Shown: in pieces, positions 8,938-32,992 of the stretch
How the letters are laid out: every line of letters starts with the position of its first letter
Numbering within the stretch: the stretch's first letter is position 1
Source of the DNA: Candidatus Krumholzibacteriia bacterium
GTDB lineage: Bacteria; Krumholzibacteriota; Krumholzibacteriia; JAJRXK01
NCBI GenBank assembly: GCA_041484665.1
Contig: JBGPIA010000008.1
Coordinates: 120,701-184,700, forward strand
Direction: 5' to 3'
DNA: 64,000 nucleotides
Translations under genes and position numbers: made by a program
Notes under the pieces: generated by a model
Database searches by the model: none
What the model was told of the DNA's origin: nothing
What the model saw: the letters and a program-made list of their open reading frames with translations, nothing else

Positions 8938-8938
8938 G

Positions 8939-9577: not shown

Positions 9578-10124
9578 CGTCGGACACCTCCATCGCAGCG
9601 AGCCCCAGCAGCTGCTCGCGGGTGCCGGCGCGATCGAAGCGTGGGTCGCACGCGTCGACGAACAGGAAGTAGCTGTCGCGCGACGCCAGGGCGAAGCGGG
9701 GCACGTTGAAGAGCGGGTGGTGCGGCCGGGGCAGCCCGTTGAGCGCCAGCATCCCCAGCACGGCCGCAAAGGCCGCGAACAGGATCGTCGTCTCGAAGGT
9801 CACCACGATGAAGGAGGGCCAGCTGTCGTACGGGCGGCCGCCGATGTTCATCGGGTAGGCCTTCACCGCGGTCCAGTACTGCAGGGTGAATCCGCAGATT
9901 GCGCCCACCACCCCACCCCCAAACACGAGCCAGGGCAGGCGCGAGTGGTGCGACTCCACGATTTGGGAGAGCTCCTCCACTGGGTAGGGTGTGAAGGCGT
10001 CGAAGCGGCGGAACCCCGCGCCGCGCACCGCGGACGCGGCGCTCACCAGCTCCGCCTCCGTGCGGAACTCCGCCAGCAGCCCCACGAAGCGCGCGGGCCC
10101 GCTCTGACCCGTCGCGGCGGTCAC
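9567..10124 (-). CDS. actD: Alternative complex III subunit ActD (DUF3341)
   Basis: LLAEF, DAFTPYPVE, YPMNIGGRP..SWPSFIVVTFE, NGLPRPHHPLF; GTG overlaps the actC stop. Confidence 0.92.
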   Translation of the reverse strand: MTAATGQSGPARFVGLLAEFRTEAELVSAASAVRGAGFRRFDAFTPYPVEELSQIVESHHSRLPWLVFGGGVVGAICGFTLQYWTAVKAYPMNIGGRPYDSWPSFIVVTFETTILFAAFAAVLGMLALNGLPRPHHPLFNVPRFALASRDSYFLFVDACDPRFDRAGTREQLLGLAAMEVSDVED

Positions 10125-11527: not shown

Positions 11528-14500
11528 TAGCCTCCCTCCAGCTCGGGGTTGGGATTGCGCAGCTTCGCCAGGTAGGTCGTCCGCGGCCGCGTGCCCAACT
11601 CGGTCAGCAGCCCGTAGTTGAGCGGCGTGGCCTTCCAGCGCGTGACCTCCGACTGCGTGTCGTTGATATCTCCGAAGACGATGGCCTGCGTCGGGCACGC
11701 CTGCTGACAGGCGGTCACGATCTCGCCGTCCTGGATCGGGCGGCCTTGCGTCTTGGCGTTGATGCGCGCGACGTTGATGCGCTGCACGCAGTAGGTGCAC
11801 TTCTCCATGATGCCGCGCATGCGCACGGTCACGTCGGGGTTGCGCTGCATCTTGAGCGTCTCGCTGCGGCGGTCGTTGTACTCCAGGAAGTTGAAACGGC
11901 GGACCTTGTAGGGGCAGTTGTTGCTGCAGTACCGCGTCCCAACGCAGCGGTTGTAGGTCATATCGTTGAGCCCCTCGGCGCTGTGCGACGTGGCGGCGAC
12001 GGGGCAGACCGGCTCGCAGGGCGCCTGCTCGCAGTGCATGCACATCACGGGCTGGTGCAGCGCCGAGGCCTCGTCCAGGCCGCCCTCGAAATAGCGGTCG
12101 ATGCGGATCCAGTGCATCTCGCGCCCCTTGTGCACCTGCTCCTTGCCCACGATCGGGATGTTGTTCTCGGCCTGGCAGGCCACCACGCAGGCATTGCAGC
12201 CGATGCAGGCCGTGAGGTCGATGGCCAGCCCCCAGGCGTGGCCCTCGTACTTGAAGCCCGGGTACAAGGAGAGGTTCTCCTGGGCCCGGTCGGCGTCACG
12301 GGCGAAGTCGGGGTTGGACTGGTACTGGGCGAGCGTCCCGACGCGCACCAGCTCGCGCCCCTCCATGCTGTGGTGCTCCTGCGTGCAGGCCAGAGGATAG
12401 CGGCGCCCCAGCGGCGTCACGGCGATCCCCGCGGCGATCCACGGGGCCCCGGCAGTGCGCAGCGCATACGCGTTGAAGCCGCAGCCGTTGCCCACCCGCC
12501 CGGCGCGGGTGCGCCCGTAGCCCAGGTGGAGCGTGATGGCGCCATCGGCTTGCCCGGGCAGCACCCAGACGGCCACGGCCAGCCGGCGCTCGCCGCTGCG
12601 CAGCTCCACCAGGTCCTCGTTGGCGACGCCCAGCCGCTGCGCGGTCGCGGGGCTCAGCAGCGCCGCGTTGTCCCAGGTGAGCTTGGTCAGAGGCTTGGGG
12701 CACTCCTGCAGCCACCCGTTGTTCGCGTGGCGTCCGTCGTGGACAGTGGGATCGGGCCGGAAGATCAGCGCCAGGCCCGCACCCAGCGCCGCAGAGTCCG
12801 AGAGCCTTGCTACGGCCTGCGCGATCCCGGCCGACTGCACCGCCGCGGCGCGGGGCAGAAGCGCCGTCCCGGCGAGCACGCCATCGTGGACTGCCTTGCG
12901 CCAGAACGACTCGAAGTCGGCCGTGGCTCGCGGCTGTGCCCGCCAGTGCTCGCGCACCAGGTCATAGTCCGTCGCATCCGGGCGCTCCAGCAGACAAGCG
13001 AGGACGCCGTGCGCGGAGCGGCCGTCGTAGAGCGGCTCGATCAGCGGCTGCACGATCGTGACCGTGCCGTCGAAGGCCCGCGCGTCGCTCCAGCTCTCCA
13101 GCGCGTGCGTCTCGGGCAGGTGCCAGTGGCAGTAGTCGGACGTCTCGTTCTGGTGGAGCCCCAGGTGCACGCGCAGCGGGACCTTCTGCATCGCCGTGGT
13201 GAAGTCCAGATCGACGGGCGCGTCGTACACGGGGTTGCCCCCCAGCACCACCAGCAGGTCGATCTTTCCCCCCGCCATCTCCGCCACGAGACGTTGTAGG
13301 GAGTCCAGCTGGTCCTCGGGCTGGGCCTCGACCGCATCGGTGAGCAGCACCGTGGCGCCCAGATTGCCCAGCGCCGCGTTCATGGCGTGGGCCAGCGCGT
13401 GCAGCTCTGGCGGCGCATGCTCGCCGGCCACCACCACGCTGGCGCCGCGATGGGCCGCCAGATCGCGGGCGATCACGGCGGCCTTGGCCGACAGCGGCGG
13501 CGGCAGATCGGGCGGCGCAGCGGCGCCTGCCACCCCCAGCTGGGCGGCCAGCGCCAGGACGAAGCCGTCCAGCTGGGCGGGCGCGAGCGCGAGCCGATGG
13601 TCGGCCACCGTGCCCGAGCTGGTGGGCGTGCTCTCGACGCAGTAGAGGCGGCTCATCGCAGCGCCAGCGACCCGCGCGCGCCGCGTCGACATGAAGTCCC
13701 GCGCGTAGCGCACGGCGGCCGGTCCCTCACACATGAAGTCCGCGTCGAGGGCGACCACCACGCGGGCCCGGGTGAAGTCGTAGCGCGCGTCGGTCCAGTC
13801 GCCAAACGCCATTCTGGCGCCCACGCGCGCGCCGTGACGGCCGGCCGGCTCGTACTGGTGCCAGCGCGCCTTCGGATAGCGCGCGAGCAGCTCGCGGATT
13901 TGCGCCGCCAAGGTCGGCGAGGTGATGGTGGTGGTCAGCAGGCGCAGACCGGCGCCCTGCAGCCCCTTCTGTGCGGTCAGGGCGCCCGCAAGCTCGGCCA
14001 GGAACGTCGTCCACGAGCGGATCTCGCCGAGGGAGGTGGGCGTCTTTGAGCGATCGGGATCGTAGAGCGTCAGCACCGACGCCTGCGCGAACAGGTCGGT
14101 CGAGCCCAGGCTCGCCGGATGATCGGGATTGCCCTCGACCTTGGTGGGCCGCCCTAGGTGGCTCTCCACGAGCACGCCCATCGCGTAGCCGCCGGCCGGT
14201 ACCGCGGTGGCGAAGTAGAGCGGCTTGCCGGGGATGATCTCCTCGGGCTGCTTGACGTAGGGAACGATCTTCTCCAGCGGCTGGCGCGCGCAGGCCGCGA
14301 GCCCGGCCAGCGCGAACGAGGCACCCATCAACTGCAGGAAGCGCCGCCGCGAGAAATCCGCCTCCATGCCGACTGGCAACAGCGACGGGAACTCGCGCTG
14401 AACCAGCTCCTGGAACTGCTCGGTCTGCGCCAGCTCGTCGAGGCTGCGCCAGTAGGCAGGGCCCTGTTGCGCCGCCAGACGCTCGCGCACGGCGGACAGA

Positions 14501-14685
14501 TCGAGGCGGCGCGGCGCATCGGTGTCGGCGGGCAGGCACGTCGGCGGACCGGTCGGGGGGCCGGTCGGCGGACTGGCCGGGGCGCCGGTCGGCAGGCCGG
14601 CGGACCCGCTACCGGCCGGGCTCTCGGGCGGGCGCAGCGGGTCGTGCTGATGATGCTGCAGTGCGGCCTCGCCGAGCGGCTCCAC
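11527..14685 (-). CDS. actB: Alternative complex III subunit ActB (molybdopterin-oxidoreductase-like + Fe-S fusion)
   Basis: YWRSLDE, Tat motif [17 protein letters not shown]-terminal [37 protein letters not shown]. Confidence 0.95.
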
Positions 14686-14694
14686 GGCGTCCTC

Positions 14695-15345
14695 CTAGCG
14701 GTGGCAGGTCGAGCAGTAGGTGAGGCTCTGGATCTGGTACTCCTGCACCAACTCGCGCCCCAACTCCTCCTGCGCCCGCGGGGGCTGCCAGCCCATGGTG
14801 AAGATCTGCGAGCGCGGCCGGACGTAACGCTCGGGATGACGGTGGCAGTCGACACACCACTCCATCTGCAGCGAGCTCGCCTGCTGCATGAGGGGCATCT
14901 TGTCCACGCGGCCGTGGCACGTCTCGCAACCGATCCCCTTGGCAACGTGGATACTGTGGTTGAAGTAGACGAAGGCCGGCAGATCGTGAACGCGCGTCCA
15001 GCGGATCGGGAGGTTTGCGCGCAGGCTCTGGCGCACCGGCTCCAGCATCGGACTGTCGGACCAGATCTGCTTGTGGCAGTTCATGCAGGTCGCCGTAGGC
15101 GGGATCCCCGCGAAACTCGACTCCTCGACCGAGGTGTGGCAGTAGCGGCAGTCGATTCCCAGGCCGGCCGTGTGGTGGTCGTGGCTGAAGGGCACGGGTT
15201 GCTGCAGGATGACGGTGCGGCCGGTCGCATAGGACGACCGGCTCAGCTGGGCGAACACCCAAGCGACCGCGGCAAGGACGAACACAGCACCATAGATGGT
15301 GAACCGCGAGATCGCGTTGGTACTGCGATGGAAGATCTGGGCCAT
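14695..15345 (-). CDS. actA: Alternative complex III pentaheme cytochrome c ActA
   Basis: N-terminal TM and five CxxCH motifs (CRYCH, CMNCH, CETCH, CVDCH, CSTCH). Confidence 0.95.
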   Translation of the reverse strand: MAQIFHRSTNAISRFTIYGAVFVLAAVAWVFAQLSRSSYATGRTVILQQPVPFSHDHHTAGLGIDCRYCHTSVEESSFAGIPPTATCMNCHKQIWSDSPMLEPVRQSLRANLPIRWTRVHDLPAFVYFNHSIHVAKGIGCETCHGRVDKMPLMQQASSLQMEWCVDCHRHPERYVRPRSQIFTMGWQPPRAQEELGRELVQEYQIQSLTYCSTCHR

Positions 15346-16038: not shown

Positions 16039-17963
16039 CAGCGCCCCGTCCGCGCGACGACGCGCTTGCCCAGGCTCGCCTGGAACTCGATCTGGAGGAA
16101 ATCGATGGTCACGCCCGCGCTGCGGTTGCCCAGCGGGAGCGCATCCACGGTGAACTGGTGGTCGCCATACCAGCTCCCGCTGGTGTAGAGGGCGTCGCTG
16201 TAGTAGGGCAGGTTGGCGCTGGGCGCCTGCAGCGGGGTCGAGGCGTTGAGCTGCCCGTCGAGCGTCCACTGGATCCCTTCGCCGGCGGCGGGCCCCGTCG
16301 AGCCCGGGCTCCAGCGGACAACACCGCTGCTGAACACCGGACCTGTGGTGATCTCACCGGTGAAGGCGAGGCTGCGCTGGCTGCCGGCAGCGGAGTTCAG
16401 CGCGCCCCAGTCCAGGTCGAGGGGGCTGTCGTCCTGCGCGCCGAAGGTGACGCGTTCGTTTCCGACCCGCACCGCGATCCAGTCGAACTGCACGCTTCCG
16501 GAGAACCCGTCGAAGGCAATGGTGAACAGCCGGTCGGTGTCGATGGCACGCACGGGCAGGTCAAACGTGTCCAGCGTCCAGGTCGTTGGATCCGACGTCG
16601 CGCGCTGCTGGCTGGTGCCGAAGGCCAGCTGCTCGTTCTCGTAGTACACCGTGAAGCTCCATGGGCCCGTGCCGTTGCCCGTGATCCAGCGCAGCGAGAT
16701 CTGACTGCCGGCAGGGATCGTCCCGCTCAGCAGGAACTGTGGCTTGGGCAGGACCGCGACCACTGCGTTGGCGGACACCCCGAGGTTGGCGTCGCCGCCG
16801 TTATTGTTCTGCTGTCCGATCTGCAGGCGGGTCAACGAGAGTGGCGCGCGGCGCGTGAGGCGCGTCTCGCTCGCGGCGATCTCGGCTCCGCGTGAAACCT
16901 CCGCCCGGATGGTGTTCACGCCCAGGTCGAGGGGGACTCCGACGTATCCGAAGGCTGAACCGTCCAGCCAGCCCGGCCCGACCGGCTTGCCGTTGACCAG
17001 GACGACCACGCTATCGGCTTGCGAGTCGTTGATCGTCCCGCCGAGATCCACCGCGCTGCGCGTCGTCACGACGCCTTGGGGCGGCTGGTCGATCGTGATC
17101 ACCAGCGGCGCTTTGCGCACCACGATGACGGTGTCCGCGTTGCTGCCGGACAGCGGTGCTGGCCGGGTGGCCGCCACGATGATGGTGTCGGGGCCGTCGT
17201 GCAACGCAACGTCCGCCGCGAACGAGCCCAGCTGCAGGGGCAAGACTGTGGAAGCAACGCCCGGGCGGAGCGAGATGGTTCCTGCCGTCAGGAAGGGGTC
17301 GTTGACCTGTCCCGTCACGTGCAGCGTGGGGCTGGTGACGTTCTGCCCGTCGGTGGGCACGGTGATCTGCATGACCAGCGGCCCCGTGCCGGGCAGGGAG
17401 TACCCGCGCGGCGGAGCGACCCGCAGCGTCACGGTGCCCTCCACTCCTGGCTGCGCGAATCCCGGAGCGATCCCGATCCACGACACGGCCGTGCTGTCGA
17501 GGAATGCGATCGCTACCAGATTCCAGCCGATGGCAGCCGCGAGCACGCCGTCGGCCACCTGTCCATCGAAGTGCAGCTCGCTTTCGGCGACGATGGGGAA
17601 GCGCGCGCCCAGCAGGGCGCGCCACGACGGCCACGAGAGCACGGGCGGTTGGTACGACTGGATCAGCGACTGGTACGGGGCCGAGACCGGGATTCCGCCC
17701 ACGATGGGGATCCCCGAAGCGTCGAGCACCAGGGCCATCGCGCGGCTGATCGCCCGGCTGGGGCTCGCCCCGGGCAATCCCGGGCGCGCCGCCTGCTGCG
17801 CGCTGTCATCGAACAGAACACGCAGCTCCAACCGCGCGGGGCGGGTGGCGTCGTCGCTCGCGCAGCCGGGCGGCAGCGCGAGCGCCAGCGCGATGAGCAG
17901 AACGCTTCGCACAGCGGCCGCACACAAAGCCGACAGCCGCCGGCGGCACGCCCATCGGGCCAT
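16038..17963 (-). CDS. Putative lipoprotein with tandem Ig-like (glucodextranase B-like) domains
   Basis: Signal ending LALALPPGC; two 'ITxPxxG.VT....V/L.G...D' / 'L..G.N/DTI' Ig-like repeats; beta-rich C-terminus; AGGAGG before ATG 17963. Confidence 0.6.
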   Translation of the reverse strand: MARWACRRRLSALCAAAVRSVLLIALALALPPGCASDDATRPARLELRVLFDDSAQQAARPGLPGASPSRAISRAMALVLDASGIPIVGGIPVSAPYQSLIQSYQPPVLSWPSWRALLGARFPIVAESELHFDGQVADGVLAAAIGWNLVAIAFLDSTAVSWIGIAPGFAQPGVEGTVTLRVAPPRGYSLPGTGPLVMQITVPTDGQNVTSPTLHVTGQVNDPFLTAGTISLRPGVASTVLPLQLGSFAADVALHDGPDTIIVAATRPAPLSGSNADTVIVVRKAPLVITIDQPPQGVVTTRSAVDLGGTINDSQADSVVVLVNGKPVGPGWLDGSAFGYVGVPLDLGVNTIRAEVSRGAEIAASETRLTRRAPLSLTRLQIGQQNNNGGDANLGVSANAVVAVLPKPQFLLSGTIPAGSQISLRWITGNGTGPWSFTVYYENEQLAFGTSQQRATSDPTTWTLDTFDLPVRAIDTDRLFTIAFDGFSGSVQFDWIAVRVGNERVTFGAQDDSPLDLDWGALNSAAGSQRSLAFTGEITTGPVFSSGVVRWSPGSTGPAAGEGIQWTLDGQLNASTPLQAPSANLPYYSDALYTSGSWYGDHQFTVDALPLGNRSAGVTIDFLQIEFQASLGKRVVARTGR

Positions 17964-18186
17964 GGCCGACATCCTCCTGGGAACGCTGAGGTGAGGCTCA
18001 GTGGGGACGGATCGCCGCCCCGAGCGCAAGCATCCTCAAGGAGGGGTACCCTGGCAAGGGCGAACCTGCGGTGTGCCGGGAGACGCGCAGCGTGCTTGGG
18101 GCGAAGTGATCCCGAGCGGCGCGACGCTGCCACGACGATGCCGCGGCGAGATCGCGGCCAGATCGCGCTGGACTCGAGGAAGAGAA

Positions 18187-18216
18187 ATCGGCCGGAGGCT
18201 CTCGCCTCCGGCCGAT
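18187..18216 (-). terminator. Rho-independent terminator of the Cys-Thr repeat gene
   Basis: Perfect 13-bp stem ATCGGCCGGAGGC / GCCTCCGGCCGAT with 4-nt loop, followed by TTCTCTT on the minus strand. Confidence 0.7.
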
Positions 18217-18300
18217 CGCTTCCATCAGGGCGTGCGCCACGTCGCGCCGCGACGCGCGCGCTTCAAGCGCAGGGCAACCGGTTCGCGACCGTCGTGGTCG

Positions 18301-19692
18301 CTAGCGATCGTACCCGTGCTTGACCTCGCCCCAGCTCTTGGTCGCGTCAGGCACCGGGCAATTGACGCCCAGCGTACAACGTGGCCCGCTCGTGCAGACT
18401 GCAGAGCTCGTGCAGCCGATCGCGCTTGACGTGCAGATTGTCGCCGTCGTGCACACTCCGCCGGTGCAGTTGGCTCCTGCCGTACACCCCGGCCCGGCCG
18501 TGCACGCGAACGGAGCGGCTGTGCAGCCCGCGCCGACCGTGCAAGCGTTCGGACCCTGTGTACATGCGATGCCGAGGGTGCAACCCGCGCCCAGCGTGCA
18601 GGCCTGGGGACCCTGCGTGCAGGTGGGGCCGCCCGTGCAGCCACCGCCGAAGGTGCAGCCCGGTCCGTTCGTGCAGACGTTGCCGGCCGTGCAGCCCGCC
18701 GCGCCCGCCGTGCAGGTCGCGCCGTTCGTGCAGGCGGGTACGCCAGCCGTGCAACCCGCGCCCAGCGTGCAGGCCTGGGGACCCTGCGTGCAGGTGGGGC
18801 CGCCCGTGCAGCCAAGGCCGAAGGTGCAGGCCGGTCCGTTCGTGCAGACGTTGCCGAACGTGCAGCCCGCCGCGCCCGCCGTGCAGCCCGCGCCGTTCGT
18901 GCAGGCCGGTACGCCTGCCGTGCAGCCCGGACCGGACGTGCAGGCCGTCGGATCGAAGGTGCAGTGACCGCCGCCGGTGCAACCCGCGCCCTGGGTGCAG
19001 CCTGCCGCCCCGGCCGCGCCGGATGTGCAGAATGCGCCCCTCGTGCACGCGTCCGGACCGGAAGTGCAGCCAGGGCCCTGCGTGCAGGTCGTGCCGACCG
19101 TACACGCGTGGGGACCGAACGTGCAGTTGTCACTCGAGGTGCAGTTGGTGCAGTTGGTGCAGACCCCGGACGTGCAGCGGTCGCCTGCCGTACAGGCCGC
19201 AGGCCCCGCCGTGCAGTTCGCGCCCATCGTGCACCACGCGCCCGTGGTGCAGCTGGGGCCGTCCGTGCAGACGGGAGACTGAGTGCAGTAGACGCCCTGC
19301 GTACAGCCCGAGCCCTGCGTGCAGGTCGCTCCACCCGTGCAAAGTGACTGCGCCGTGCAGTCGGGAGTCACGGTGCAGATACTCTGCGTGCATTCCGCCC
19401 CCACAGTGCAGTCTTGCGCAAGGGTGCAGTCAGGGCCCTGCGTTTGCTCGTTTGACTTGTCGACGCCGGCCTGCGGTGGGCCGGTCAGGAACGGGTCGCC
19501 GACCTTCCAGACCTTGCCGGCCATCCCGTTGGCGGAGAGATCGATGATGTGCGTGAACAGCGGCGACGCTTCCGCGTCGGTGGCCTGCACCCGCAGACCG
19601 TGCTGGACCGCCACGTAACCGACCGCCCCCACCGCGAGCAGGAGCAGGCACAGGATCCGGGTACATCGGCCGACCTTGAACGTTGTCCTCAT
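18301..19692 (-). CDS. Secreted Cys-Thr (CTxGxx) repeat protein with C-terminal SWGxxK motif
   Basis: Basic + hydrophobic N-terminus; 58 consecutive CT-initiated units (mostly 6-7 aa) plus a final Cys; ends PDATKSWGEVKHGYDR; alternative start 19728. Confidence 0.85.
   Translation of the reverse strand: MRTTFKVGRCTRILCLLLLAVGAVGYVAVQHGLRVQATDAEASPLFTHIIDLSANGMAGKVWKVGDPFLTGPPQAGVDKSNEQTQGPDCTLAQDCTVGAECTQSICTVTPDCTAQSLCTGGATCTQGSGCTQGVYCTQSPVCTDGPSCTTGAWCTMGANCTAGPAACTAGDRCTSGVCTNCTNCTSSDNCTFGPHACTVGTTCTQGPGCTSGPDACTRGAFCTSGAAGAAGCTQGAGCTGGGHCTFDPTACTSGPGCTAGVPACTNGAGCTAGAAGCTFGNVCTNGPACTFGLGCTGGPTCTQGPQACTLGAGCTAGVPACTNGATCTAGAAGCTAGNVCTNGPGCTFGGGCTGGPTCTQGPQACTLGAGCTLGIACTQGPNACTVGAGCTAAPFACTAGPGCTAGANCTGGVCTTATICTSSAIGCTSSAVCTSGPRCTLGVNCPVPDATKSWGEVKHGYDR
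18583..18924 (-). repeat. 171-bp tandem duplication (2 x 57 aa, nine CT units each) inside the Cys-Thr gene
   Basis: CTAGVPA-CTNGAx-CTAGAAG-CTxGNV-CTNGPx-CTFGxG-CTGGPT-CTQGPQA-CTLGAG occurs twice (18754-18924, 18583-18753). Confidence 0.9.
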
Positions 19693-19825
19693 GACGATAG
19701 AGTCACCCCCCCAGAGATTTGCCCTCATGGGCTTCTGGTTGAGAGAGCTGCAAAAGCACGTCCTGACGAGCGCCGGGCACCAAGGGGGCAGGACGCGCGG
19801 CTGGGACGTGCCCGCAGCATACCTG

Positions 19826-19839
19826 TCTACGATCGTAGA
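19826..19839. promoter_or_regulatory. Perfect 14-bp palindrome in a divergent intergenic region (operator or bidirectional -10)
   Basis: TCTACGATCGTAGA is its own reverse complement and contains TACGAT on both strands. Confidence 0.5.
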
Positions 19840-20015
19840 TCTCTTGGCCTCGGGCGCGATATAGGGAAAACTCTGATGCGGCCACGACGTCGCAGAAGTT
19901 GTTCAGGGACAGCGGGCGGCAGCGGCGCGGGGAGCGATGGGCGCCCGACCCGCGCCCCGGGGACCCCCGGGGCGGCTTGCATCTGCCGGTCCCTTGTGCT
20001 CTGCTCAGGCGCAGC

Positions 20016-22691
20016 ATGCATCCCTTCCTCATCGCTGCTTGCGTCCTGCTCGCCGCTGCCTGCCAGGAGCGCGCGCTCGGTCTCAACGGTCAGGCGCCCA
20101 ATACCTTGCTTGGACTGGTCGCGCTGGTTCTCGCCCTGGTCGCGCTGGTCGGGCCTGCGCCCTCCCCTGCGGAGCCCGGCGGGGGGGCTGCCGCTTCGCC
20201 CGCCCGGCCCACCGCCCAGCCCACGATCGGGCGCCGCGTTTGGGCTGGCGGCATCGCCGGCACTGCCCTGATGCTGTTGGGGCTCATCGCCTGGATTGGC
20301 GGAGTTCGCATCGCGCAGCCGTTCGCCCTGGCTGTGGCATTGGGCGGGGCGGTTCTGGTGCAGCGCCCGGGCGGCTCGCACCAGCGGCTCGCGGGCGCCC
20401 TGCTCGGCTTCGCCCTGCTGCATGCCACCTGCGTGACCGTGCGGGACCACCTCCCGCTCTGGTGGCTGTACGAGCGCGCGAGCGTCGGATTCAGCGGCGC
20501 TGTTTCGGAGCTCAGCGGCCGCCGGCTGGCCCTGGGTCCCCAGTACGCGGGGACGCATCTGGGCGTGATCGCCGGCGTCTACGCAGCGGCGCATCTGCTC
20601 GGTGCCCGGCAGCGGCGCTGGATGTGGGCCGTGCTCGTGCTCGCTCTGCTCCCGCTGGCGGTGGCCCTGCACGTGGCGCTGGGCACGATCGCCTGGTGGT
20701 GGCCGTGGGCGGCCCAGCAGCCGCTGCTGGACGGCGTCGACGCTCCCATCATCCTGTTCGGATTGCTGCTGCTGCCGATTGGATTGCTGTGGCGAACCCA
20801 ACCGCTCGCGCCGCGCGGGGGTGGCCCGCGGGTACGGTCGCAGCCAGGGTCGCAGCCGGACTCTCAGCCCCCGTCGCAGCCACGGTCGCAGCCGGGGTCT
20901 CTGGCCGCCCGCAGGCCGTGGCTCGCCGCGGGCGTGGGCCTCACTCTGCTGGTGCTGGGGATCATCCTCGCCACCTGGGAGCGCGCCGTCCCGGCCGCGC
21001 ACGGCCGGGTCACGATCTGCACGCGTGGCACCTGGTCGACGAAGCTTCCGGTCTGGGGCCTCTACGGCAGCCAGGCGACGACCGGTGCGAACGCCTCTGC
21101 TCTCCCGTTGCTGCTGCAGGACGCCGGCTTCACGGTGGCTCTCCACGACACCGTGATCGATGACGCGCTGCTGCAGGGCACCGACGTGCTGTTCTTCATG
21201 GACCTGGGCGAGAAGCTGGACCCGGCCGAGCGGCAGGCCATCTGGCGGTTCGTCGAGCGCGGCGGCGGACTGCTGGTGCTGGGCGACCACACGGACATCC
21301 AGGGTGTGATGCACCCGACCAACGAGCTGCTGGAGCCCGTGGGAGTCCGCCTGAAGTTCGACTCGGCGATCCCGTTCGTGCCGCGCTGGACCTGGTACAA
21401 CGCCATGCGCCTGCACCCGCATCCAGCGTTGCGCGGCTTGCGCGACGAGAGCGACGTGAAGGTGAGCGTGGGCGCGTCGCTGCAGGCGCCGCCCGGGGCG
21501 CGGCCGCTCCTGACCGGCCGCCTCGCGTTCAGCGACGCGGGCAACCTGTACAACGCCCGGGGCGCCTATCTGGGGAACATGCAGTACGACGCCGGCGAGC
21601 GCACCGGGGACATCCTGCTTGCCGTAGAGGCGCGCTATGGACGCGGCAAGGTGGTGGTGTTCGGTGACACGTCTTCCTTCCAGGTCACCTCGTCCCCCAA
21701 TACCGTGCAGATGGTGTGCGGGCTGTTCCAGTACCTGGCCGATCCGCGCGGCCACGGCCCCGGCGCCGGCCGTCGTCTGGCCGGGAGCCTGCTGCTCGTT
21801 GCCGGCGCGCTCCTGCTGGTGGCCAGCGGCGAGCTGCTGCCGGCCGCTCTGGCCGCGGCCGCGGTGGCCGGTTGGCTGGCCCTGGCCGCCACCGACGCGC
21901 ACGGACGGGTCGACGCGCCGCGTCCCACGCACGGCGCGCTCGCCTACCTCGACCTGGCGCATGGCAACCGCGTCGACCTGCACGCCGGCCAGGTCAACGG
22001 CATCAACGGCCTGCTCCTCACTCTGATGCGAGCCGGTTTGCTGCCGCAGGGGCACAAGGACTTCGATCCGAGCGCCCTGCAACGTGCGGAGCTGGCCGTG
22101 GTGGATGCGCCCGCCTTCTCGTTCTCGGCCGGCGAGATCCGCGCCCTGCACCACTACGTTGAGCAGGGTGGCAATCTGATCGTGTCGGTCGGCTGGGAGG
22201 AGCGCAACGGTGCCCAGGCACTCTTGTCCAGCTTCGGCTACGCCATCGGGCGTACGCCCATCGGCGCCGCCCACGACGCGATCTGCAGCATCGACCGCCA
22301 TTACGCCAACATGCACGAGTCGTGGCCGGTGGAGCGCCCCGCGGCGCGCGGCGAGGTGCTCGTCAGCTCATGGAACTACCCGCTGATCGTGCTCGAGGCG
22401 ATCGGCAAGGGTCACTTGCTGGTCATCGGAGACTCATTCTTCCTGCTGGACGGCAACCTCGAGAGCAGCGAGTCGTTCAACGCCAACAACATCCTGTTCG
22501 TGCGCGCGGTGCTCGAGCGCATGCTTGGGCGGGAGCTGGGGCCGCCTGAGGAGCCGTCCCACCGTTCCGTGCGGATCGCGCCGCGGACGGCAGACCAGCC
22601 CGCGCAACCCGCGGCAGCCGGCGCCGGCGACACTCCAGCACGGCACGATCCGGTCACGCCACCACGGCGCTCGCACGGAGGGACCCCGTGA
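20016..22691 (+). CDS. Polytopic membrane protein with two GATase1-like (DUF4350/GldG-GIFT-like) domains, paralog A
   Basis: Multi-TM N-terminus; TDVLFF..ERQAIWRFVERGGGLLVLGDHT..YGRGKVVVFGDTS; TM pair; EIRALHHYVEQGGNLIV..GKGHLLVIGDS; ORF track start 19899. Confidence 0.7.
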   Translation: MHPFLIAACVLLAAACQERALGLNGQAPNTLLGLVALVLALVALVGPAPSPAEPGGGAAASPARPTAQPTIGRRVWAGGIAGTALMLLGLIAWIGGVRIAQPFALAVALGGAVLVQRPGGSHQRLAGALLGFALLHATCVTVRDHLPLWWLYERASVGFSGAVSELSGRRLALGPQYAGTHLGVIAGVYAAAHLLGARQRRWMWAVLVLALLPLAVALHVALGTIAWWWPWAAQQPLLDGVDAPIILFGLLLLPIGLLWRTQPLAPRGGGPRVRSQPGSQPDSQPPSQPRSQPGSLAARRPWLAAGVGLTLLVLGIILATWERAVPAAHGRVTICTRGTWSTKLPVWGLYGSQATTGANASALPLLLQDAGFTVALHDTVIDDALLQGTDVLFFMDLGEKLDPAERQAIWRFVERGGGLLVLGDHTDIQGVMHPTNELLEPVGVRLKFDSAIPFVPRWTWYNAMRLHPHPALRGLRDESDVKVSVGASLQAPPGARPLLTGRLAFSDAGNLYNARGAYLGNMQYDAGERTGDILLAVEARYGRGKVVVFGDTSSFQVTSSPNTVQMVCGLFQYLADPRGHGPGAGRRLAGSLLLVAGALLLVASGELLPAALAAAAVAGWLALAATDAHGRVDAPRPTHGALAYLDLAHGNRVDLHAGQVNGINGLLLTLMRAGLLPQGHKDFDPSALQRAELAVVDAPAFSFSAGEIRALHHYVEQGGNLIVSVGWEERNGAQALLSSFGYAIGRTPIGAAHDAICSIDRHYANMHESWPVERPAARGEVLVSSWNYPLIVLEAIGKGHLLVIGDSFFLLDGNLESSESFNANNILFVRAVLERMLGRELGPPEEPSHRSVRIAPRTADQPAQPAAAGAGDTPARHDPVTPPRRSHGGTP
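20835..20897 (+). repeat. Imperfect 12-bp tandem repeat encoding (xSQP)5 linker
   Basis: RSQPGSQPDSQPPSQPRSQPG. Confidence 0.7.
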
Positions 22692-25435
22692 CGCTGCTCT
22701 GGCTCGCCGCACTACTGGTTGCCGTGGGCTGGGTGGAGCTCTTGCCCACCGTCGGAGCGCCACGCACGTCGCTGGGCGTGGTGGAAATCGTGTGCGCTGC
22801 GGCTGCCACGGGCGTCGCGCTGCGGCGCGTGCGCGTGCGTCTGCGGGCTCGGACGCGCCTGCTGCTGATCGCGGCCGGGATCGCGGCCATCGCCGTGCTC
22901 CCCTTCCCCTATGGCCTGGGGCTGTTCCTGGTGGCCCTGGCCAGCGGGCTGCTTTGGCTGCCAGCGCCGCGGCCGCCCGCGCTGCTGCAAGGCGCGATCG
23001 CGGCGCTGGGAGGCGTCGGGCTCGCGCTGGCCGTCCTGGGAGCGCTCAGCCCCGTCTACTTCCTGGTGGCCGCCCGCGTCCACGAGCTGGGACCGCTCAC
23101 CTATCCGGTGAGCTGGGCGCTGCGGCTGCTGGCGCAGCACGCCAGCGCGGATCCACCGTTCGTGCACCTGGGGGCGGTCGGCGGAGTCGTGACCTTCGAC
23201 GTGAGCCTGGAGAAGCTGGGCGGCTACCCGCTGTTGTGCTTCGTGGCCGTCGCCGCGTTGCTGGTTTTCCTGGCCGGAGGGCGCCGCTCGTGGAGCGCGC
23301 TGTTCGCCCTGCTCGGGCTGGGAGCGATCTACGGGCTGCTGCGCCTGCTGCTGCTGTCGCTGCTGCAGCAGGGAGGCGAAATCCCCGAGATCTACTACAA
23401 CCGCGTCTGGGACTGCGGAGGGCTGGCCGTGCTCTGCGGCTTCTGCGTGCTCGCGCTCGTCGTGCGCGGGGGCGCCGTGGTGGATGCGCAGACGGTGGGT
23501 GAGCAGGGAGCGCCGGCAGCCTCGGGCGGACCGGCCGCCGCGGCGAGGCGTCCGGATCGCGAGCTCACGTTGGCGCTGTTATCGGCCGCCCTGGCGCTGG
23601 CCGTGGTCGGCGCCTACGGCTACCAGGACCCTGGCCATCCGAAGCGCGGCCGCGTCATGATCGATGAGGCCCACTCCAACTGGGAGTGGAGCACGATTGC
23701 ACTGGATACCGAGTCCTACGGTGTGCAGACGGTCTACAACTACTCGGAAATGATGCGCTACTTCGGCCATTACTACGAGGACATCACCAACTTCGACAGT
23801 CTCACGACCGACGTGCTGGCCAAGACGGACGTGCTGATCCTCAAGACCCCCACGCGTCCCTACGCGGAGGCCGAGGTCGACGCCATCGTGCGCTTCGTCG
23901 AGCAAGGCGGCGGTCTGTGGTTGGTGGGCGACCACACGAACATCTTCGGGATGAGCAGCAACCTCAATCGCGTCGCGCGGCGCTTCGGCATGCGCTACAA
24001 CTACAATGCGGTGGTTGACCTGCTGACGCGCGGCCGCCAGCTCTATCTGCACCCGCGCCTGCTGGCGCATCCCGCCGTGATCAACATGCCGCCGCTGCTG
24101 CTGGCGACCTCCTGCAGCATGCAGGCGCCACTGAGCAGCCGCGACGTGATGATCGGGCAGTCCCTGCTCGCCGATCAGCTCGACTACTCGCAGAACACGT
24201 TCTTCGGCAACTTCGCCCCCGACCCGTTCGAGCCGTTCGGCACGATCCTGCAATCGGCGGCGACGACGCGCGGGAAGGGACGCGTGCTGCTGTTCAGCGA
24301 CAGCACGGTTTTCAGCAACTTCTTCATGTTCATCCAGGGCAAGGCGGAGCTGGCGCTGGGCAGCGTGGCGTGGCTGATGCGGGAGAACCACACCACCTGG
24401 GTGCCGCCCTTCCTGGCCGCGTGCGCGTTGCTGTTGGCCATCGCGGCGGCGACGCTCGCGGCACGCTTGAACCGCCTGCGCGCGCTAACGGCCGCGCTGG
24501 GTCCGGGAGCGCTCGCGTTCATCGTGGGCGCGCTGCTGCTCACCGCCCAGACCAAGCGCGCCTACCCCCTGCCCTCGCCCCACCAGGAGCCGCCGTGGAT
24601 CGCCTTCGAGCGGGGGCACTGCTCCTACGGGCTGCCCGAGACCCATGAGATCCCCGACAACTCGGCGGAGAGCCATCAGACCTTCTACGTGTGGACGGGG
24701 CGCGTAGGCTACATGCCGTTCACGGCACCGCTGGCGCAGTGCCTGCAGCGGGCGCGGATCCTCGTGCTGGTCAACCCACGCGATCCGTTCGATACAGCCA
24801 GCCGCGACGCAATCGAGCGGTTCGTGCGGGACGGGGGCCGCCTCCTGGTGTTCGACTCCCCGCATGTCGGGCAGGTGCAGATCCGCGAGCACGGTCAAGA
24901 GCGTAGCGCAACCATCGGGACGACGGCCAATGACCTGTTGCCCGCCTTTGGGATCCGCATGCTCGGGGCCGAGGTCGACTCGGTGGTGGCGATCAGCACC
25001 GCGACCAAGGACTCGGTGACCATGCTCTACCACGTGGGCGCGCTGGAGGGCGGCACACCGTTGCTGACTCGTCCCGACGGAACCCCGATCCTCGTGGTGG
25101 CCGATCACGGCCGGGGAAAGGTCGCGGCCATCTGCGCCTCGGACAGCTTCACCGACGCGGTGCTGGGCACCACGTCGCAAATCCCCTCGCCGGAGCAGCT
25201 CGCGCTCTATCGGATCGAGTTCTCGCTGCTGGACGACGTGCTGCGCCCGCCAGACGTGCCGCGCCCGGTGCGCACGCCACCGCCAGTGCGGCCGTCCTCG
25301 TCCGCGCGTACGTCGTTCGCGCCGGCTGGCGCGCCGGCTGGCGCGCCAGCCGCCACGCCCGGCACCACGCCCACCCCCGTCCCGTCCGGGCCCAACGCGC
25401 CTGCAGCGCGGATCCCCGCCCAGACACCACGGTAG
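22688..25435 (+). CDS. Polytopic membrane protein with exosortase-like TM segment and two GATase1-like domains, paralog B
   Basis: GTGA overlap with paralog A; RVMIDEAHSNWE..TDVLILKTP..AIVRFVEQGGGLWLVGDHT..GKGRVLLFSDST; second domain AIERFVRDGGRLLVFD..GRGKV. Confidence 0.7.
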   Translation: MTLLWLAALLVAVGWVELLPTVGAPRTSLGVVEIVCAAAATGVALRRVRVRLRARTRLLLIAAGIAAIAVLPFPYGLGLFLVALASGLLWLPAPRPPALLQGAIAALGGVGLALAVLGALSPVYFLVAARVHELGPLTYPVSWALRLLAQHASADPPFVHLGAVGGVVTFDVSLEKLGGYPLLCFVAVAALLVFLAGGRRSWSALFALLGLGAIYGLLRLLLLSLLQQGGEIPEIYYNRVWDCGGLAVLCGFCVLALVVRGGAVVDAQTVGEQGAPAASGGPAAAARRPDRELTLALLSAALALAVVGAYGYQDPGHPKRGRVMIDEAHSNWEWSTIALDTESYGVQTVYNYSEMMRYFGHYYEDITNFDSLTTDVLAKTDVLILKTPTRPYAEAEVDAIVRFVEQGGGLWLVGDHTNIFGMSSNLNRVARRFGMRYNYNAVVDLLTRGRQLYLHPRLLAHPAVINMPPLLLATSCSMQAPLSSRDVMIGQSLLADQLDYSQNTFFGNFAPDPFEPFGTILQSAATTRGKGRVLLFSDSTVFSNFFMFIQGKAELALGSVAWLMRENHTTWVPPFLAACALLLAIAAATLAARLNRLRALTAALGPGALAFIVGALLLTAQTKRAYPLPSPHQEPPWIAFERGHCSYGLPETHEIPDNSAESHQTFYVWTGRVGYMPFTAPLAQCLQRARILVLVNPRDPFDTASRDAIERFVRDGGRLLVFDSPHVGQVQIREHGQERSATIGTTANDLLPAFGIRMLGAEVDSVVAISTATKDSVTMLYHVGALEGGTPLLTRPDGTPILVVADHGRGKVAAICASDSFTDAVLGTTSQIPSPEQLALYRIEFSLLDDVLRPPDVPRPVRTPPPVRPSSSARTSFAPAGAPAGAPAATPGTTPTPVPSGPNAPAARIPAQTPR

Positions 25436-27258
25436 GGCAGCGCGCCCTGCAGCGGCCCCGCGCCGGCAACGGCGCGCTCGATCAGCATGCGCCATGCACG
25501 GCGCGCATCGCGCAGGGCACAGGCCGCCTCGGCCGCGGTGGCGGGCAGGACCGCGATGGTGCGGCTGCGATGGTAGCAACCGTCGCCGAACGCGGCGCCC
25601 ATCGGCCAGCACAGCGCGCCCGGCGCGCAGCTCCAGTGCCGCGGTACTCCCCAGGCACGCTCGTCCTGCGGCAGGATCACGCGCAGCGCCACGTCGATCG
25701 ACGCGTCCCAGGGTGTGGCCGTGAGGCCCCGGCCGGTGGACTCCACACGCGTCCAGCGCCCGGGCGCCAGCCGCGCCTCCACCACGAAGTGCTCCTGCGT
25801 TGCCGCGTCCACGGGAATTACGGAAAGCAGCCGCGCCGGGATGCCCCGGGCGCGCAGCAGCGCTGCGAGCAGGTTGGCGTGACCGGTGCAGACGCCGAAG
25901 CCGCGCCGCAGCGTCGAGAGCGCATCCTGATTGCCCAGCGGCCGGATCGCGATCGCGCAGCGCTTGAAGGACTCGGCGGCGCGCGCGACGGTCGCCGGCG
26001 GGGCCCCCGCCGGCGCCAGCGATCGCGCCGCGGCAACGATCTCCGGCGCGCCGGACTGGATCGCGGGCGAGGGCGCGCTCCAGCAGGCGTCGTCGTCCAG
26101 CGGGAGGTCAGCCGGCAGGATCGGCGCCCCCTGCGCCAGCACGACCTGCTCCTCCCAGTACACAAAGAGCAGAGTGTCCTGCGGCTCGGTCGAGAGCTCC
26201 ACGTGCACGGAAGCGTTGCCGCGCTCCTCGAGCAGCCGGAACGAGAGGATGCGGTCCGCGGGCTGTGTGCGCAGCGCCAGCCGCAGAGGCGCTTGGTGTT
26301 GCTCGATGGGAGGAACGGCGAATCGCAGCCATGATCGGCCCGCGGACGACGCCGGGCGCAGCACGTACGCGCCCTCGGCGAGAACGATTTGCAGCCGCGC
26401 CTGGGGCGCTGACCGAATCGCCGCGCCCACCGACTCATCCGCTGCCTCGCCCGGCTCCGCCCGCGGCGCGCGCGCTACGGCGTCCGGTCCAGCGGACCGG
26501 CCGTAGGGATCGAGCCGCCAGGGCGGGCCCGCCACATCGCTCGCACGCGCGAGCTGCAGCGCGCGAAAGCTGGCCGCGCCGGAGCCGTAGAGCCCAGCGC
26601 GCACCAGCACGGTCTGTGTCCCAGCGGGGAGGACCAGCGAGCGCTCGAAACGGCGCCACGGCTGCGTGCCGCCCAGGTCGCCGGCGGCGCGTAGCGGGAA
26701 GCGCGCCAGCTCGCGATCCTGGGCGAAGCACTGCAGCACGACGTTGGCGGCGACCGCTTCAGCCGTCGCCATCCAGCCGCCCAGCAGCAGGCGATCGCCC
26801 GCGCGCACACCCTCCACCCGCTGTGTCCAGGAGCGGAGGTAGCCCTGATCCGGCCGGGCAACGACGATGCTGGCGACGCCGTCCTCGATCGCGAAGCGTG
26901 CCCGCGGCGCGCGGCGGGGCTCGGCAGCCGCCTGCGCCGGCGCCACCCGGCCCAAGTCGGCAAGCGCGCGCGTGTGCGTCGCGCCAACCGAGTCAGCGGC
27001 CGCGGGCCCCGGCGGCACGCGCTGCGAATCGGCGGGCGCGACCGCGCGCGAGCGACCCACCGCGCGCCAGGCGATGGGTTGGCCCTGCTCCAGCTGCGTG
27101 AAGTCACCGTTGCGCAGCAGGTTCTGTGGCGCGCGCGCCCACGACGCAGGGGCCGCCGCGCACGACCCGGTGCGGGATCTCCCGACGGGCGGCGCGCCAG
27201 GCGCCGCACACGACGCCACGCACGCGAGCGCCACCGCTGCAATCCGCCCAGCGCTCAC
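25207..27258 (-). CDS. Putative lipoprotein: carbohydrate-binding-like domain + transglutaminase-like domain
   Basis: AAVALACVASC signal; NLLRNGDF..GTQPWRRFE (CBM-like); GVCTGHANLLAALLRARGIPAR..H..E..W (transglutaminase core); GTG overlaps the upstream stop. Confidence 0.75.
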   Translation of the reverse strand: MSAGRIAAVALACVASCAAPGAPPVGRSRTGSCAAAPASWARAPQNLLRNGDFTQLEQGQPIAWRAVGRSRAVAPADSQRVPPGPAAADSVGATHTRALADLGRVAPAQAAAEPRRAPRARFAIEDGVASIVVARPDQGYLRSWTQRVEGVRAGDRLLLGGWMATAEAVAANVVLQCFAQDRELARFPLRAAGDLGGTQPWRRFERSLVLPAGTQTVLVRAGLYGSGAASFRALQLARASDVAGPPWRLDPYGRSAGPDAVARAPRAEPGEAADESVGAAIRSAPQARLQIVLAEGAYVLRPASSAGRSWLRFAVPPIEQHQAPLRLALRTQPADRILSFRLLEERGNASVHVELSTEPQDTLLFVYWEEQVVLAQGAPILPADLPLDDDACWSAPSPAIQSGAPEIVAAARSLAPAGAPPATVARAAESFKRCAIAIRPLGNQDALSTLRRGFGVCTGHANLLAALLRARGIPARLLSVIPVDAATQEHFVVEARLAPGRWTRVESTGRGLTATPWDASIDVALRVILPQDERAWGVPRHWSCAPGALCWPMGAAFGDGCYHRSRTIAVLPATAAEAACALRDARRAWRMLIERAVAGAGPLQGALPYRGVWAGIRAAGALGPDGTGVGVVPGVAAGAPAGAPAGANDVRADEDGRTGGGVRTGRGTSGGRSTSSSSENSIR

Positions 27259-28385
27259 GGCGTGATCCCGTGGTCCTTCAGCCACCCCTGCCACAGCGCG
27301 CGCACGGAGTCAGGGACCGCGGCCCGAGCCGCCCCGCTCCGGCGCGCCAGCGCGGACCAGGGCGCCGCGCCCACGGGCAGGCTGTCGCAGGGGCTGCGGA
27401 CGAGCAAGGGCTGCAGCCCGTCCTGCGAGGTGAGTGCGCCAGGATCGGCCTCGCAGTTGCCGTCGACCTCGATCGCCGGCGGTTTGCATGCGCCGCCCGC
27501 GGCACCGCCTTCGTTCTGCCACACGAGATTGCGGTGCAGCACCGCCGGCTTCTGCTCTCCAAGCAGGTAGACGGCGGCGCCCTTGCGGCTGCGGGCGATC
27601 ACGTTGTCCCGGATCAGCGCCGGCGAATCGTCCAGGTAGATTCCGCCGCCGCTGCTGGTGGCCGCGTTGCCGATCATCGTGTTGCCGATGATCACCGGAG
27701 TCGAGACGTGCGCCAGGACCGCCCCGCCCGACACGGCGTCGTTGTCGACGATGAGGTTGTTGTAGACGAGCGGCGCGCACCGCGCGTAGGCGGCCACGGC
27801 TCCGCCCAGGTATCCCTCGGCGCGCCGCATCACGTTGCAGGCGATCACCGCGTTGCTGCCATGGTTCATGTACACGCAGGGGCCCAGGTAGCCCAGGTGG
27901 TCCTGGATGATATTGAAAACCACGAGGGGGCTGGAGCCCTCCAGATAGATGCCGCCGCCGCCCGAGTTGGGGTGGTCCCGGCGGCCGTGCTGGAGCGTGA
28001 AGCCCTGGATGAGGGTGGAGGCGTCGAGCTGCTGGCCGAACAGCACGTAGCGATCTCCCGCCGCATCGAGGATGGTCGAGTCAGCGCCGGAGGCGCTCAT
28101 CAGCGCGACACCTGACTTGAGCGTGACCGTCTTCTCATAGCGCCCCAGTCCCACCAAAACCGTATCGCCCGCGGCAGCGGCCGCCATCGCCGTCTGGATG
28201 GTCGGTGCCGCGTTCCGCCATGTCGCAAACGGGGGAGCGCCGTGACCGTCGGGGCGCACGTGCAGCACAGCCGCCGCCGCGACACCCGCGCACAGCGACG
28301 CCGCAACGACGAGCGGGAGCAACCGGACACGCAGCACCAACGACCGGTGCCGGATCGCCGCGAGCGGGACCTGTAGACGCTTCAT
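27255..28385 (-). CDS. Secreted right-handed parallel beta-helix (pectin-lyase-fold) protein
   Basis: Signal peptide; TIQTAM..A..GDTVLV..GRY; repeated GGGIY/GGAV + N-ladder motifs. Confidence 0.8.
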   Translation of the reverse strand: MKRLQVPLAAIRHRSLVLRVRLLPLVVAASLCAGVAAAAVLHVRPDGHGAPPFATWRNAAPTIQTAMAAAAAGDTVLVGLGRYEKTVTLKSGVALMSASGADSTILDAAGDRYVLFGQQLDASTLIQGFTLQHGRRDHPNSGGGGIYLEGSSPLVVFNIIQDHLGYLGPCVYMNHGSNAVIACNVMRRAEGYLGGAVAAYARCAPLVYNNLIVDNDAVSGGAVLAHVSTPVIIGNTMIGNAATSSGGGIYLDDSPALIRDNVIARSRKGAAVYLLGEQKPAVLHRNLVWQNEGGAAGGACKPPAIEVDGNCEADPGALTSQDGLQPLLVRSPCDSLPVGAAPWSALARRSGAARAAVPDSVRALWQGWLKDHGITP

Positions 28386-31699: not shown

Positions 31700-32779
31700 T
31701 TACGCCGTGCCCACCGCCGGAGTCACTGCCATGCCTACCGCCGTCTCACGCAACTGCCCGCAGGCGGCGTTGACGTCCTCGCCTTGGGTGCGGCGCACGC
31801 GGGCGAACACGTCGCGCTCGCGCAGGATCGCCAAGAACACCTGCATGCGCCGCGGCGAAGCGGCTTCGAAGGGGAAGCCGCTGATCCCCGTGCCGATCGA
31901 GTTGTATGGGATGAGATTTACGTGCGCGCGCAACCCGTCCAGCCGGTCGGCGAGCGCGCGGGCGTGATCGTCGCTGTCGTTGATCCCAGCCAACATGCAG
32001 TAGCCGATGGTAGGAATGGTGCCGGTGCGCTGCGCGTAGCGCCGCGTCGCGTCGAGCACCTCGGCAACGCCGTAGCGGCGGTTCAGCGGAACGAGTCGTG
32101 CCCGCGTGGCGTCATCGGCCGCGTGCAATGAGAGCGCCAGACGGACGTCCAGCCCGGAGTCCGCCAGCCGGTCCATCTCGGGCACTAGTCCCACAGTCGA
32201 GACCGTGACCTGCTCCCATCCCAGCTCGCCCAGCTTGGGGGCCGCGATCAAGCGGATCGCGGCGATCACGCTGTCCAGGTTGTGCAAGGGCTCCCCCATG
32301 CCCATGAACACCAGCGTGGAGAGACGGCGGCCCAGCGATTGCGCCTCGGCGCGCAGATGAAGAAACTGCTCTGCGATCTCGCCGCCGCCGAGATTGCGCT
32401 CCAGCCCGTTGCGCGTACTGGCGCAGAAGTCGCACCCCATGGCGCAGCCCATTTGCGACGAGACGCAGCCGGCCGCCCGTTGCGCACCGTACGCGGGCAT
32501 CAAGACCGACTCGACCGCGCCGCCCGCGTCGAAGCCGACCAGTAACTTGATCGTTCCGTCCGCGCTGCGGCTGCGCGCGAGGATGCGCGACTGCCGCAGC
32601 GGGATCTCCTCCTCGACGCGCCGCTGCAATTGCTTTCCCAGTCGCAGGCCGGCCAGGTCGCAGTCGCCGTTGCTCCAGTAGAAAGAGCGCAGCAGCCGCG
32701 CTGCGTGGGCGGGGTGGTGTCCCCACTGCGTGAACTGCGCCGCGAGCGTCTCCGGGGTGAAGTCGGTGAGGGCGGGCAT
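31700..32779 (-). CDS. rlmN: RlmN-family radical SAM RNA methyltransferase
   Basis: CVSSQMGCAMGCDFC, FMGMGEPL, SLHA, HVNLIPYN, AACGQL. Confidence 0.85.
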   Translation of the reverse strand: MPALTDFTPETLAAQFTQWGHHPAHAARLLRSFYWSNGDCDLAGLRLGKQLQRRVEEEIPLRQSRILARSRSADGTIKLLVGFDAGGAVESVLMPAYGAQRAAGCVSSQMGCAMGCDFCASTRNGLERNLGGGEIAEQFLHLRAEAQSLGRRLSTLVFMGMGEPLHNLDSVIAAIRLIAAPKLGELGWEQVTVSTVGLVPEMDRLADSGLDVRLALSLHAADDATRARLVPLNRRYGVAEVLDATRRYAQRTGTIPTIGYCMLAGINDSDDHARALADRLDGLRAHVNLIPYNSIGTGISGFPFEAASPRRMQVFLAILRERDVFARVRRTQGEDVNAACGQLRETAVGMAVTPAVGTA

Positions 32780-32992
32780 GCGACTCCCGGTCGCTTCCAG
32801 ACGGCGCGCAAACATGGGAAACCCCGCACGCCGCGCGGCGTGGGGGGCGCAGGACCAGGCGAGTAGTGTAGCCGAGCGGGCGGCGCGATGGAAGGGTGGC
32901 GCGTTGAGCGTCACGCTCCAAGGCTCCGACACCAGGATTCCGCCATCGCACCGCCGCGCTCACATCGGGTCGGGGATTCGCATCTCCCAGCA

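Follow-up and report, generated by a model that had tools for sequence, protein, structure and literature searches.

The locus described here raises the question of what two large, paralogous membrane proteins do to the Cys- and Thr-rich secreted protein encoded beside them. It lies in a window of 64,000 nucleotides from a Candidatus Krumholzibacteriia bacterium (assembly GCA_041484665.1, contig JBGPIA010000008.1); coordinates below are positions in that window. Three open reading frames (ORFs) make up the locus:

18301-19728, minus strand: P0001, secreted precursor-like ORF of 475 aa with signal peptide, leader, Thr...Cys core and C-terminal tail
19899-22691, plus strand: protein A (P0002), 930 aa, with a multi-transmembrane (multi-TM) domain, GIFT domain 1, a TM pair and GIFT domain 2
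22688-25435, plus strand: protein B (P0003), 915 aa, with the architecture of A and coupled to A by a GTGA overlap

A, B and the partner are a real, widespread and previously undescribed three-gene system, and its three parts are very probably dedicated to one another. That the partner core is covalently modified is probable. The nature of the modification is proposed more tentatively, at somewhat less than even confidence: maturation directed by the leader outside the membrane, most likely by lanthionine-like thioether stapling of Thr to Cys. No description of the module was found in the open full-text literature, a coverage that leaves aside subscription papers and supplements.

The sequence-only reading of this DNA had described P0001 as facing two translationally coupled genes, and ORF coordinates and strands agree. 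The GDHT motifs it saw are present at 21237-21293 in A and 23882-23938 in B, and the proposed paralogy of A and B is borne out by profile comparison (probability 100%, E 6e-57). The head-to-head layout is real in the window but incidental. Of the nearest partners at 82 loci, 37 lie downstream and 30 upstream in the orientation of the pair, 12 are divergent and three convergent.

How general is the association? Searched with a profile of B, genome_contigs yielded 307 relatives and the metagenome contigs 277; the best 80 of each gave a set of 160 loci. By record titles, the relatives' taxa include Chloroflexota, Desulfobacterales, Planctomycetota, Bacillota, Ignavibacteria, Eisenbacteria, Bacteroidota and Thermoplasmatota. 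A is upstream of B in 117 of the 124 loci with more than 1.5 kb of upstream sequence. The pair is patchy, being present in 14 of 151 genomes of its own phylum and in none of the eight others of its own family.

Cys/Thr arrays were scored by a strict test that is independent of the leader (at least 10 Cys, 70% of them with Ser or Thr at one offset). A looser test was dropped because it gave 92 matches in the window's own genome (49 of 57 among the loci); by the strict test, P0001 is the sole match in the 5.45 Mb of that genome. The sequence-only reading had staked its proposal on an enrichment of Cys/Thr genes beside homologous pairs, and such genes are indeed enriched: the 460 kb of sequence lying up to 2 kb from the pair contain 71 strict-array ORFs, as against four in the 496 kb beyond 5 kb. 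A leader or a strict array is found within 3 kb in 46 of the 57 loci that have flanks of at least 3 kb. When the loci are grouped at 50% identity into 37 clusters, some member has a partner in 32 of them and every member in 28.

The partners share a leader. It follows a signal peptide and consists of an SP[L][F/Y] motif and an amphipathic helix. A profile built from this motif, with a signal required of its matches, finds it in 96 ORFs at 82 of the 160 loci; at least three Cys lie downstream in 88 of the 96. Among the 151 genomes of the phylum, the profile matches in 10 of the 14 that carry the pair (no match in the other four) and in four of the 137 that do not; kin are not independent in these genome counts. 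Of the four pair-negative matches, two contain a stop and a third is weak and falls in an unrelated ORF; the fourth is a genuine leader, without a detected A, in an assembly that is 84% complete and in 630 contigs. In an archaeal phylum of 121 genomes, six have the pair, five the leader and four both (4/6 versus 1/115). Since some of the positives sat in the training set, it is the lack of matches in pair-negative genomes that carries the information.

In a screen of pair-negative genomes, DNA pattern matches were inspected at seven places; six are off-frame within other genes or repeats, and one is a short remnant in a pair-positive genome. A CT-like repeat match in the window's own genome (G000:C10:12863-12957) was rejected, being an Ala/Pro-rich linker of the opposite strand read out of frame.

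Core class requires 12 changes on a quickly built tree of 91 segments of B, compared with 45.9 when shuffled. The six rows of the CT class, including the window, form one branch (support 99) with Lentisphaerota, Planctomycetota and Gemmatimonadota titles. This clustering shows joint inheritance of core and B, not co-evolution.

The features of P0001 are as follows:

19606-19662, minus strand: hydrophobic signal segment, residues 23-41, from hydropathy
19513-19566, minus strand: leader, residues 55-72, SP-L-F motif and amphipathic helix, from the profile common to the 96 ORFs
18358-19443, minus strand: core, residues 96-457, 59 consecutive units, each with Thr at its start and Cys at its end
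18578-18946, no strand assigned: internal duplication of 171 bp (57 residues, nine Cys), 2.2 copies
18304-18357, minus strand: C-terminal [ST]WGx[VILF]K tail, also present in 38 further ORFs of the genome

Thr directly follows 59 of the 61 Cys of P0001, and Cys are spaced mostly by six (39 times) or seven (13 times) residues. The leader is the sole signal-preceded copy in its genome. No Pfam or NCBIfam family matches P0001, and a homologue search with residues 1-200 returned two proteins.

Across homologous loci the core period varies from 4 to 15 residues, and the offset of the Ser or Thr (+1, -1, -2 or -8) depends on the class. Of 2747 internal Cys in 62 arrays, 89.4% have Thr and 5.6% Ser at the register position, figures inflated by the choice of the best of five offsets for each array. 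The ends of the arrays have a polarity. In 54 complete arrays an adjacent Ser or Thr accompanies 93% of internal Cys, 37 of the first Cys and 19 of the last. Of 64 arrays, 53 have a Thr 4-10 residues ahead of the first Cys and 31 have one at that distance beyond the last (p 7e-5 for the two ends, overstated by kinship). The P0001 array itself opens on a Thr with no preceding Cys and closes on a Cys with no following Thr. Because of this Thr-first/Cys-last polarity, each Cys seems to be paired with a Thr 5-9 residues upstream. Thr or Ser upstream of Cys is the usual direction of a lanthionine.

A Cys about every six residues with an array of Thr is also the pattern of beetle antifreeze proteins of the TmAFP type, and P0001 shares it. 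Accordingly, the question arises of whether the cores are disulfide-laddered solenoids, with A and B as a dedicated foldase or oxidase. The six-residue spacing and Thr arrays of the CT and TC classes fit such a structure, as does the even Cys number in 11 of the 15 arrays with the longest internal duplications. DsbB and VKOR were not found in any of five hosts (controls matched in 6 and 3 of 14), so that disulfides would here need a private oxidase; the window encodes a heme-copper oxidase subunit, and the host may therefore meet oxygen. However, the arrays have no bias towards even Cys numbers (33 of 58; p 6e-11 against 90% even), the core in the window has 59 Cys and its duplication nine, and periods of 4 to 15 residues are incompatible with one solenoid. 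There is no conserved Cys pair in the alignments of A or B, and none of the Cys columns of A rises above 33/96. Unlike the beetle proteins, the cores commonly have odd Cys counts, a unit with one Cys and other periods in homologous loci, and they match no antifreeze-protein family. A disulfide solenoid is considered distinctly unlikely.

The Cys could instead be metal ligands, in a metallothionein-like or mineral-nucleating array that A and B load with metal or whose thiols they protect. Core residues are 15.8% Cys and 9.7% Asp or Glu, the GIFT domains have conserved His, Asp and Glu, and many hosts are sediment anaerobes by their record titles. This proposal leaves the fixed Thr and the polarity without a role, and, apart from a generic ABC ATPase (11/160 loci), metal-transport families do not recur among the neighbours of the pair; it is judged improbable.

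This last point comes from a clustering of 4188 neighbouring ORFs, in which families were judged by eye from sequence and not scanned with Pfam. Apart from the ABC ATPase and a FlgD-type tail, no neighbour family crosses lineages.

The sequence-only reading had given both membrane proteins the order multi-TM region, domain, TM pair, domain, and had pointed to GIFT and DUF4350 proteins; Pfam and AlphaFold2 models agree with both. A and B each have two DUF4350 and two IFT52_GIFT stretches above Pfam cut-offs (DUF4350 58.8 and 55.2 bits, cut-off 30.4; IFT52_GIFT 34.4 and 53.9 bits, cut-off 27.2). Their domains are:

20220-20798, plus strand: membrane domain of A, possibly a degenerate exosortase-like domain (lead level)
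21006-21740, plus strand: GIFT domain 1 of A, with H464, T465, D546, D590 and T591 invariant (96/96)
21939-22526, plus strand: GIFT domain 2 of A, with D685, H688, R711, D845 and E855 conserved and no GDH
22979-23464, plus strand: membrane domain of B, possibly exosortase-like, with K176 at the catalytic Cys position, R219 as the Arg, and the His lost
23651-24376, plus strand: GIFT domain 1 of B, with Y350, K386, H416, H461, D538, S539 and T540 invariant (67/67)
24596-25240, plus strand: GIFT domain 2 of B

The models are of good quality: B has a predicted local distance difference test score (pLDDT) of 88.5 and a predicted template modelling score (pTM) of 0.89, and A has 84.6 and 0.87. In fold searches the B model matches IFT52 (5fms; Z 21.7, root-mean-square deviation (rmsd) 2.6, 205 aligned), site-1 protease (Z 19.3) and OST48 (Z 18.4, rmsd 3.2, 221 aligned), and the A model has IFT52 on top. 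These whole-model searches returned GIFT-fold chains alone and barely probed the membrane domains. Both GIFT domains are predicted to face outside, because basic residues precede the last N-terminal helix and sit between the TM pair.

The His of GDHT is invariant in all 67 B and all 96 A sequences, and in GIFT domain 1 of B, E327 is near-invariant, as is C476 (61/67). This fold family places active sites at strand ends, and several of the invariant polar residues follow strand ends in the B model. GIFT domain 1 of B is, on conservation, a candidate active site. Its Lys, His and Tyr may parallel those of phosphothreonine lyases, a likeness for which no usable confirmation was found in the literature. 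Covariation of A and B with leader class points to residues 468-562 of B and is confounded by the archaeal clade. A class I glutamine amidotransferase was rejected: mapped from the model, the position after the central strand is D-H-T, with no Cys nucleophile.

A and B share fold, Pfam membership and a predicted outward-facing, membrane-anchored disposition (judged by the basic residues beside the helices) with the GIFT proteins IFT52, GldG, OST48/Wbp1, site-1 protease and DUF4350/arCOG01314. Unlike these, they are paralogues with four GIFT domains between them, each protein also containing a polytopic domain; they have an invariant His/Lys/Asp/Tyr set and no recurrent ABC or AAA partner. The GldG equivalog (TIGR03521) is missed by far, with B at 22 bits against a cut-off of 389.85 and no match for A. 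One report describes a single-TM DUF4350 family, which is different from A and B (PMC5898192).

The fold shared with OST48 suggests another reading, in which each Thr, or Cys, receives a sugar, phospho-glycerol or acyl group that A and B take from a lipid-linked donor, and no ring is closed. The basic residues of the membrane domain and the preference for Thr in the cores are in keeping with it, as is the sugar binding proposed for GIFT domains (PMC7226087). Group transfer leaves unexplained why there is one Cys per Thr in a fixed register and why arrays begin with Thr and end with Cys, and no glycosyltransferase-like family recurs among the by-eye neighbour clusters. It is regarded as unlikely, if less so than the solenoid.

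The membrane domains resemble exosortases at lead level. Their first Atlas matches are exosortase clusters (PF09721; 0.88 and 0.87), and hhalign to exosortase gives 41% for B and 15% for A; the membrane domains of A and B compared directly give a weak 6.5%. The membrane layout, with a three-strand outer loop and a conserved Arg, resembles that of exosortase/archaeosortase (PF09721, TIGR04178). In the merged alignment the exosortase Cys column falls on K176 of B (Lys in 33/49, Arg in 5/49), and the Arg is R219 (49/49; 59/67 in full-length sequences). The exosortase/archaeosortase triad is Cys-Arg-His (10.1101/2023.06.07.544157); in A and B both Cys and His are lost. Thus, at lead level, A and B appear to carry an exosortase-like membrane domain without the catalytic Cys and His.

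Could A and B then be a sortase or exporter of a new kind, cleaving the partner or anchoring it to lipid? Besides the likeness of the membrane domains, no exosortase was found in the window's own genome. Beyond the lost Cys and His, the substrate tag is N-terminal, unlike the C-terminal tripartite signal of exosortase substrates. The C-termini of 87 complete partners are unrelated, with 41 ending in Cys, 32 in other domains, eight in a WGxxK tail and six in a TM tail. The WGxxK tail also ends 39 ORFs of the window's own genome (29 with a signal-like start; five further matches are internal), whereas the leader marks one. No NCBIfam model matches this tail on P0001, and it is apparently an uncatalogued sorting signal, probably lineage-specific and independent of A and B. 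The sequence-only reading had included export or anchoring among the possible functions; this is unlikely, because the partners, which have ordinary signal peptides, have unrelated C-termini and the tail marks 39 ORFs. The probability left to a sortase or exporter is very small.

Thioether stapling is preferred because of the fixed Thr/Ser-Cys register, the Thr-first/Cys-last polarity, the lack of an even Cys bias and the lack of DsbB and VKOR in the five hosts. In outline, the substrate is exported by its signal peptide, which is seen in the sequence. The A/B pair, probably a heterodimer, would then recognize the SP-L-F/Y leader helix, as co-occurrence suggests, and the GIFT1 domains would act on each Thr...Cys unit, as the grammar of the core suggests. 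Most likely the Thr hydroxyl would be removed and the downstream Cys thiol added, giving methyllanthionine-type thioether rings; a run of rings 5 to 9 residues long may stiffen a surface protein in a setting that lacks disulfide machinery. More speculatively, the exosortase-like domain of B might bind a lipid phosphate through its Lys and Arg and so activate the hydroxyl in place of ATP or Glu-tRNA. Leader recognition, the heterodimer and catalysis are inferred; the thioether product and lipid-phosphate activation are guesses. The full proposal, that a pseudo-exosortase heterodimer with the GIFT fold forms from dozens to more than 100 Thr-to-Cys thioether rings in secreted proteins outside the membrane without ATP or tRNA, is more tentative still than stapling as such.

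Lanthipeptides of classes I-V offer the closest parallel in arrangement, with a conserved leader and variable core, Ser or Thr upstream of Cys, and adjacent dedicated enzymes. Unlike them, the partners have signal peptides, up to at least 150 units and fusions to surface domains, and the proposed reaction is outside the membrane. No LanB, LanM, LanKC, LanL or LanC domain was found in A or B with Pfam and NCBIfam. Bufferins are reported to be exported, Cys-containing precursors of the signal-peptide type, belonging to the RiPPs (peptides made on the ribosome and modified after translation) and modified by MNIO enzymes (PMC11626156). The partners are likewise exported Cys-containing precursors; the enzymes differ, and no MNIO or radical SAM family recurs among the clustered neighbours. 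NCBIfam profiles of Cys-rich RiPP precursors gave no match for P0001 and, over 26 partners, a best precursor-type match of 13.1 bits against 30 (CefA).

Several observations weigh against stapling as proposed. Energy is the weak point: known lanthipeptide dehydration needs Glu-tRNA or phosphorylation (PMC8358304), and neither would be at hand outside the membrane. No lanthipeptide-type enzyme, class V included, and no such dehydration enzyme recurs among the by-eye neighbour clusters. The GIFT domains of IFT52, OST48 and site-1 protease are not known to be catalysts, and the sugar binding already cited points elsewhere. The exosortase homology is below every curated cut-off: TIGR04178 matched three of 49 members (best E 0.24), PF09721 is not among the matches listed for the 49, and the exosortase hidden Markov model scores barely above reversed controls (best 6.4 versus 3.8 bits for B, 11.1 versus 2.4 for A). 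In the cores, the first Cys lacks an adjacent Ser or Thr in 17 of 54 arrays, and the even Cys numbers of the longest duplications (8 of 13 when counted by unit lag) suit disulfides. Eleven of the 57 loci have no partner within 3 kb; of five orphan pairs examined, three are in genomes that encode a leader-bearing Cys/Thr protein at another place, and L241, the partner of L058, likewise lies elsewhere in its genome. No leader matches 19 of the 75 strict-array ORFs, several of which look frameshifted or seem to have divergent leaders, while two (L151, L152) show no leader. Some archaeal leader proteins are long and helical and carry just two or three Cys, each with an upstream Ser or Thr.

Those archaeal proteins, of 220-250 aa with a hydrophobic C-terminal segment, are encoded downstream of B (L123, L126, L141, L142, L154, L160). 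A single archaeal assembly (G151) has the whole module twice, with identical A and B (L040, L041). At other loci (L067, L070, L098) the partners come two or three in tandem; each is about 1000 aa long, has 127-157 Cys and hardly any repeated unit, and is hypervariable between its fixed Thr and Cys. Short natural partners are encoded at L073:2247-2732 and L106:14091-14513. Some partner genes are broken up by frame changes or runs of N (L001:13254-14697, L059, L064, L066, L072), probably through assembly errors in repeats; such genes will be miscalled in annotations.

In the window, third-position GC is 0.84-0.89 for P0001, A and B alike, and from the sequence the true starts of P0001 and A are likely ATG 19692 and ATG 20016. 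A promoter scan of 17900-20100 found no sigma-70 site. A transglutaminase-like protein (25207-27294, minus strand) is convergent on B and its ORF overlaps the 3' end of B; this gene and a radical SAM gene at 31700-32932 are absent from the top 30 neighbour clusters of homologous loci. At 32993-36385 (minus) is a secreted protein of 1130 aa, of no family, with a FlgD-Ig/Por-tail domain at its C-terminus, and a Pfam scan found no match for ORFs 47438-50068 and 49920-53069 (both minus). An Alternative complex III-like operon (3559-15345, minus; NrfD, 4Fe-4S fusion, multiheme cytochrome) adjoins the heme-copper oxidase subunit I gene.

New in this analysis are the leader common to the partners, the Thr-first/Cys-last polarity of their cores and the possible likeness of the membrane domains to exosortases. 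Known leader-directed peptide modification is cytoplasmic, and the GIFT fold is otherwise known from cilia, oligosaccharyltransferase and gliding. If the proposal is true, a short leader is read and repeat units are modified after export, which would constitute a new class of post-translational machinery, a first catalytic role for the GIFT fold and a non-proteolytic use of the exosortase scaffold. It would also mean a new lanthionine-forming chemistry, an anaerobic substitute for disulfide stapling in many bacterial phyla and Thermoplasmatota, which would be portable to any protein given a 20-residue leader.

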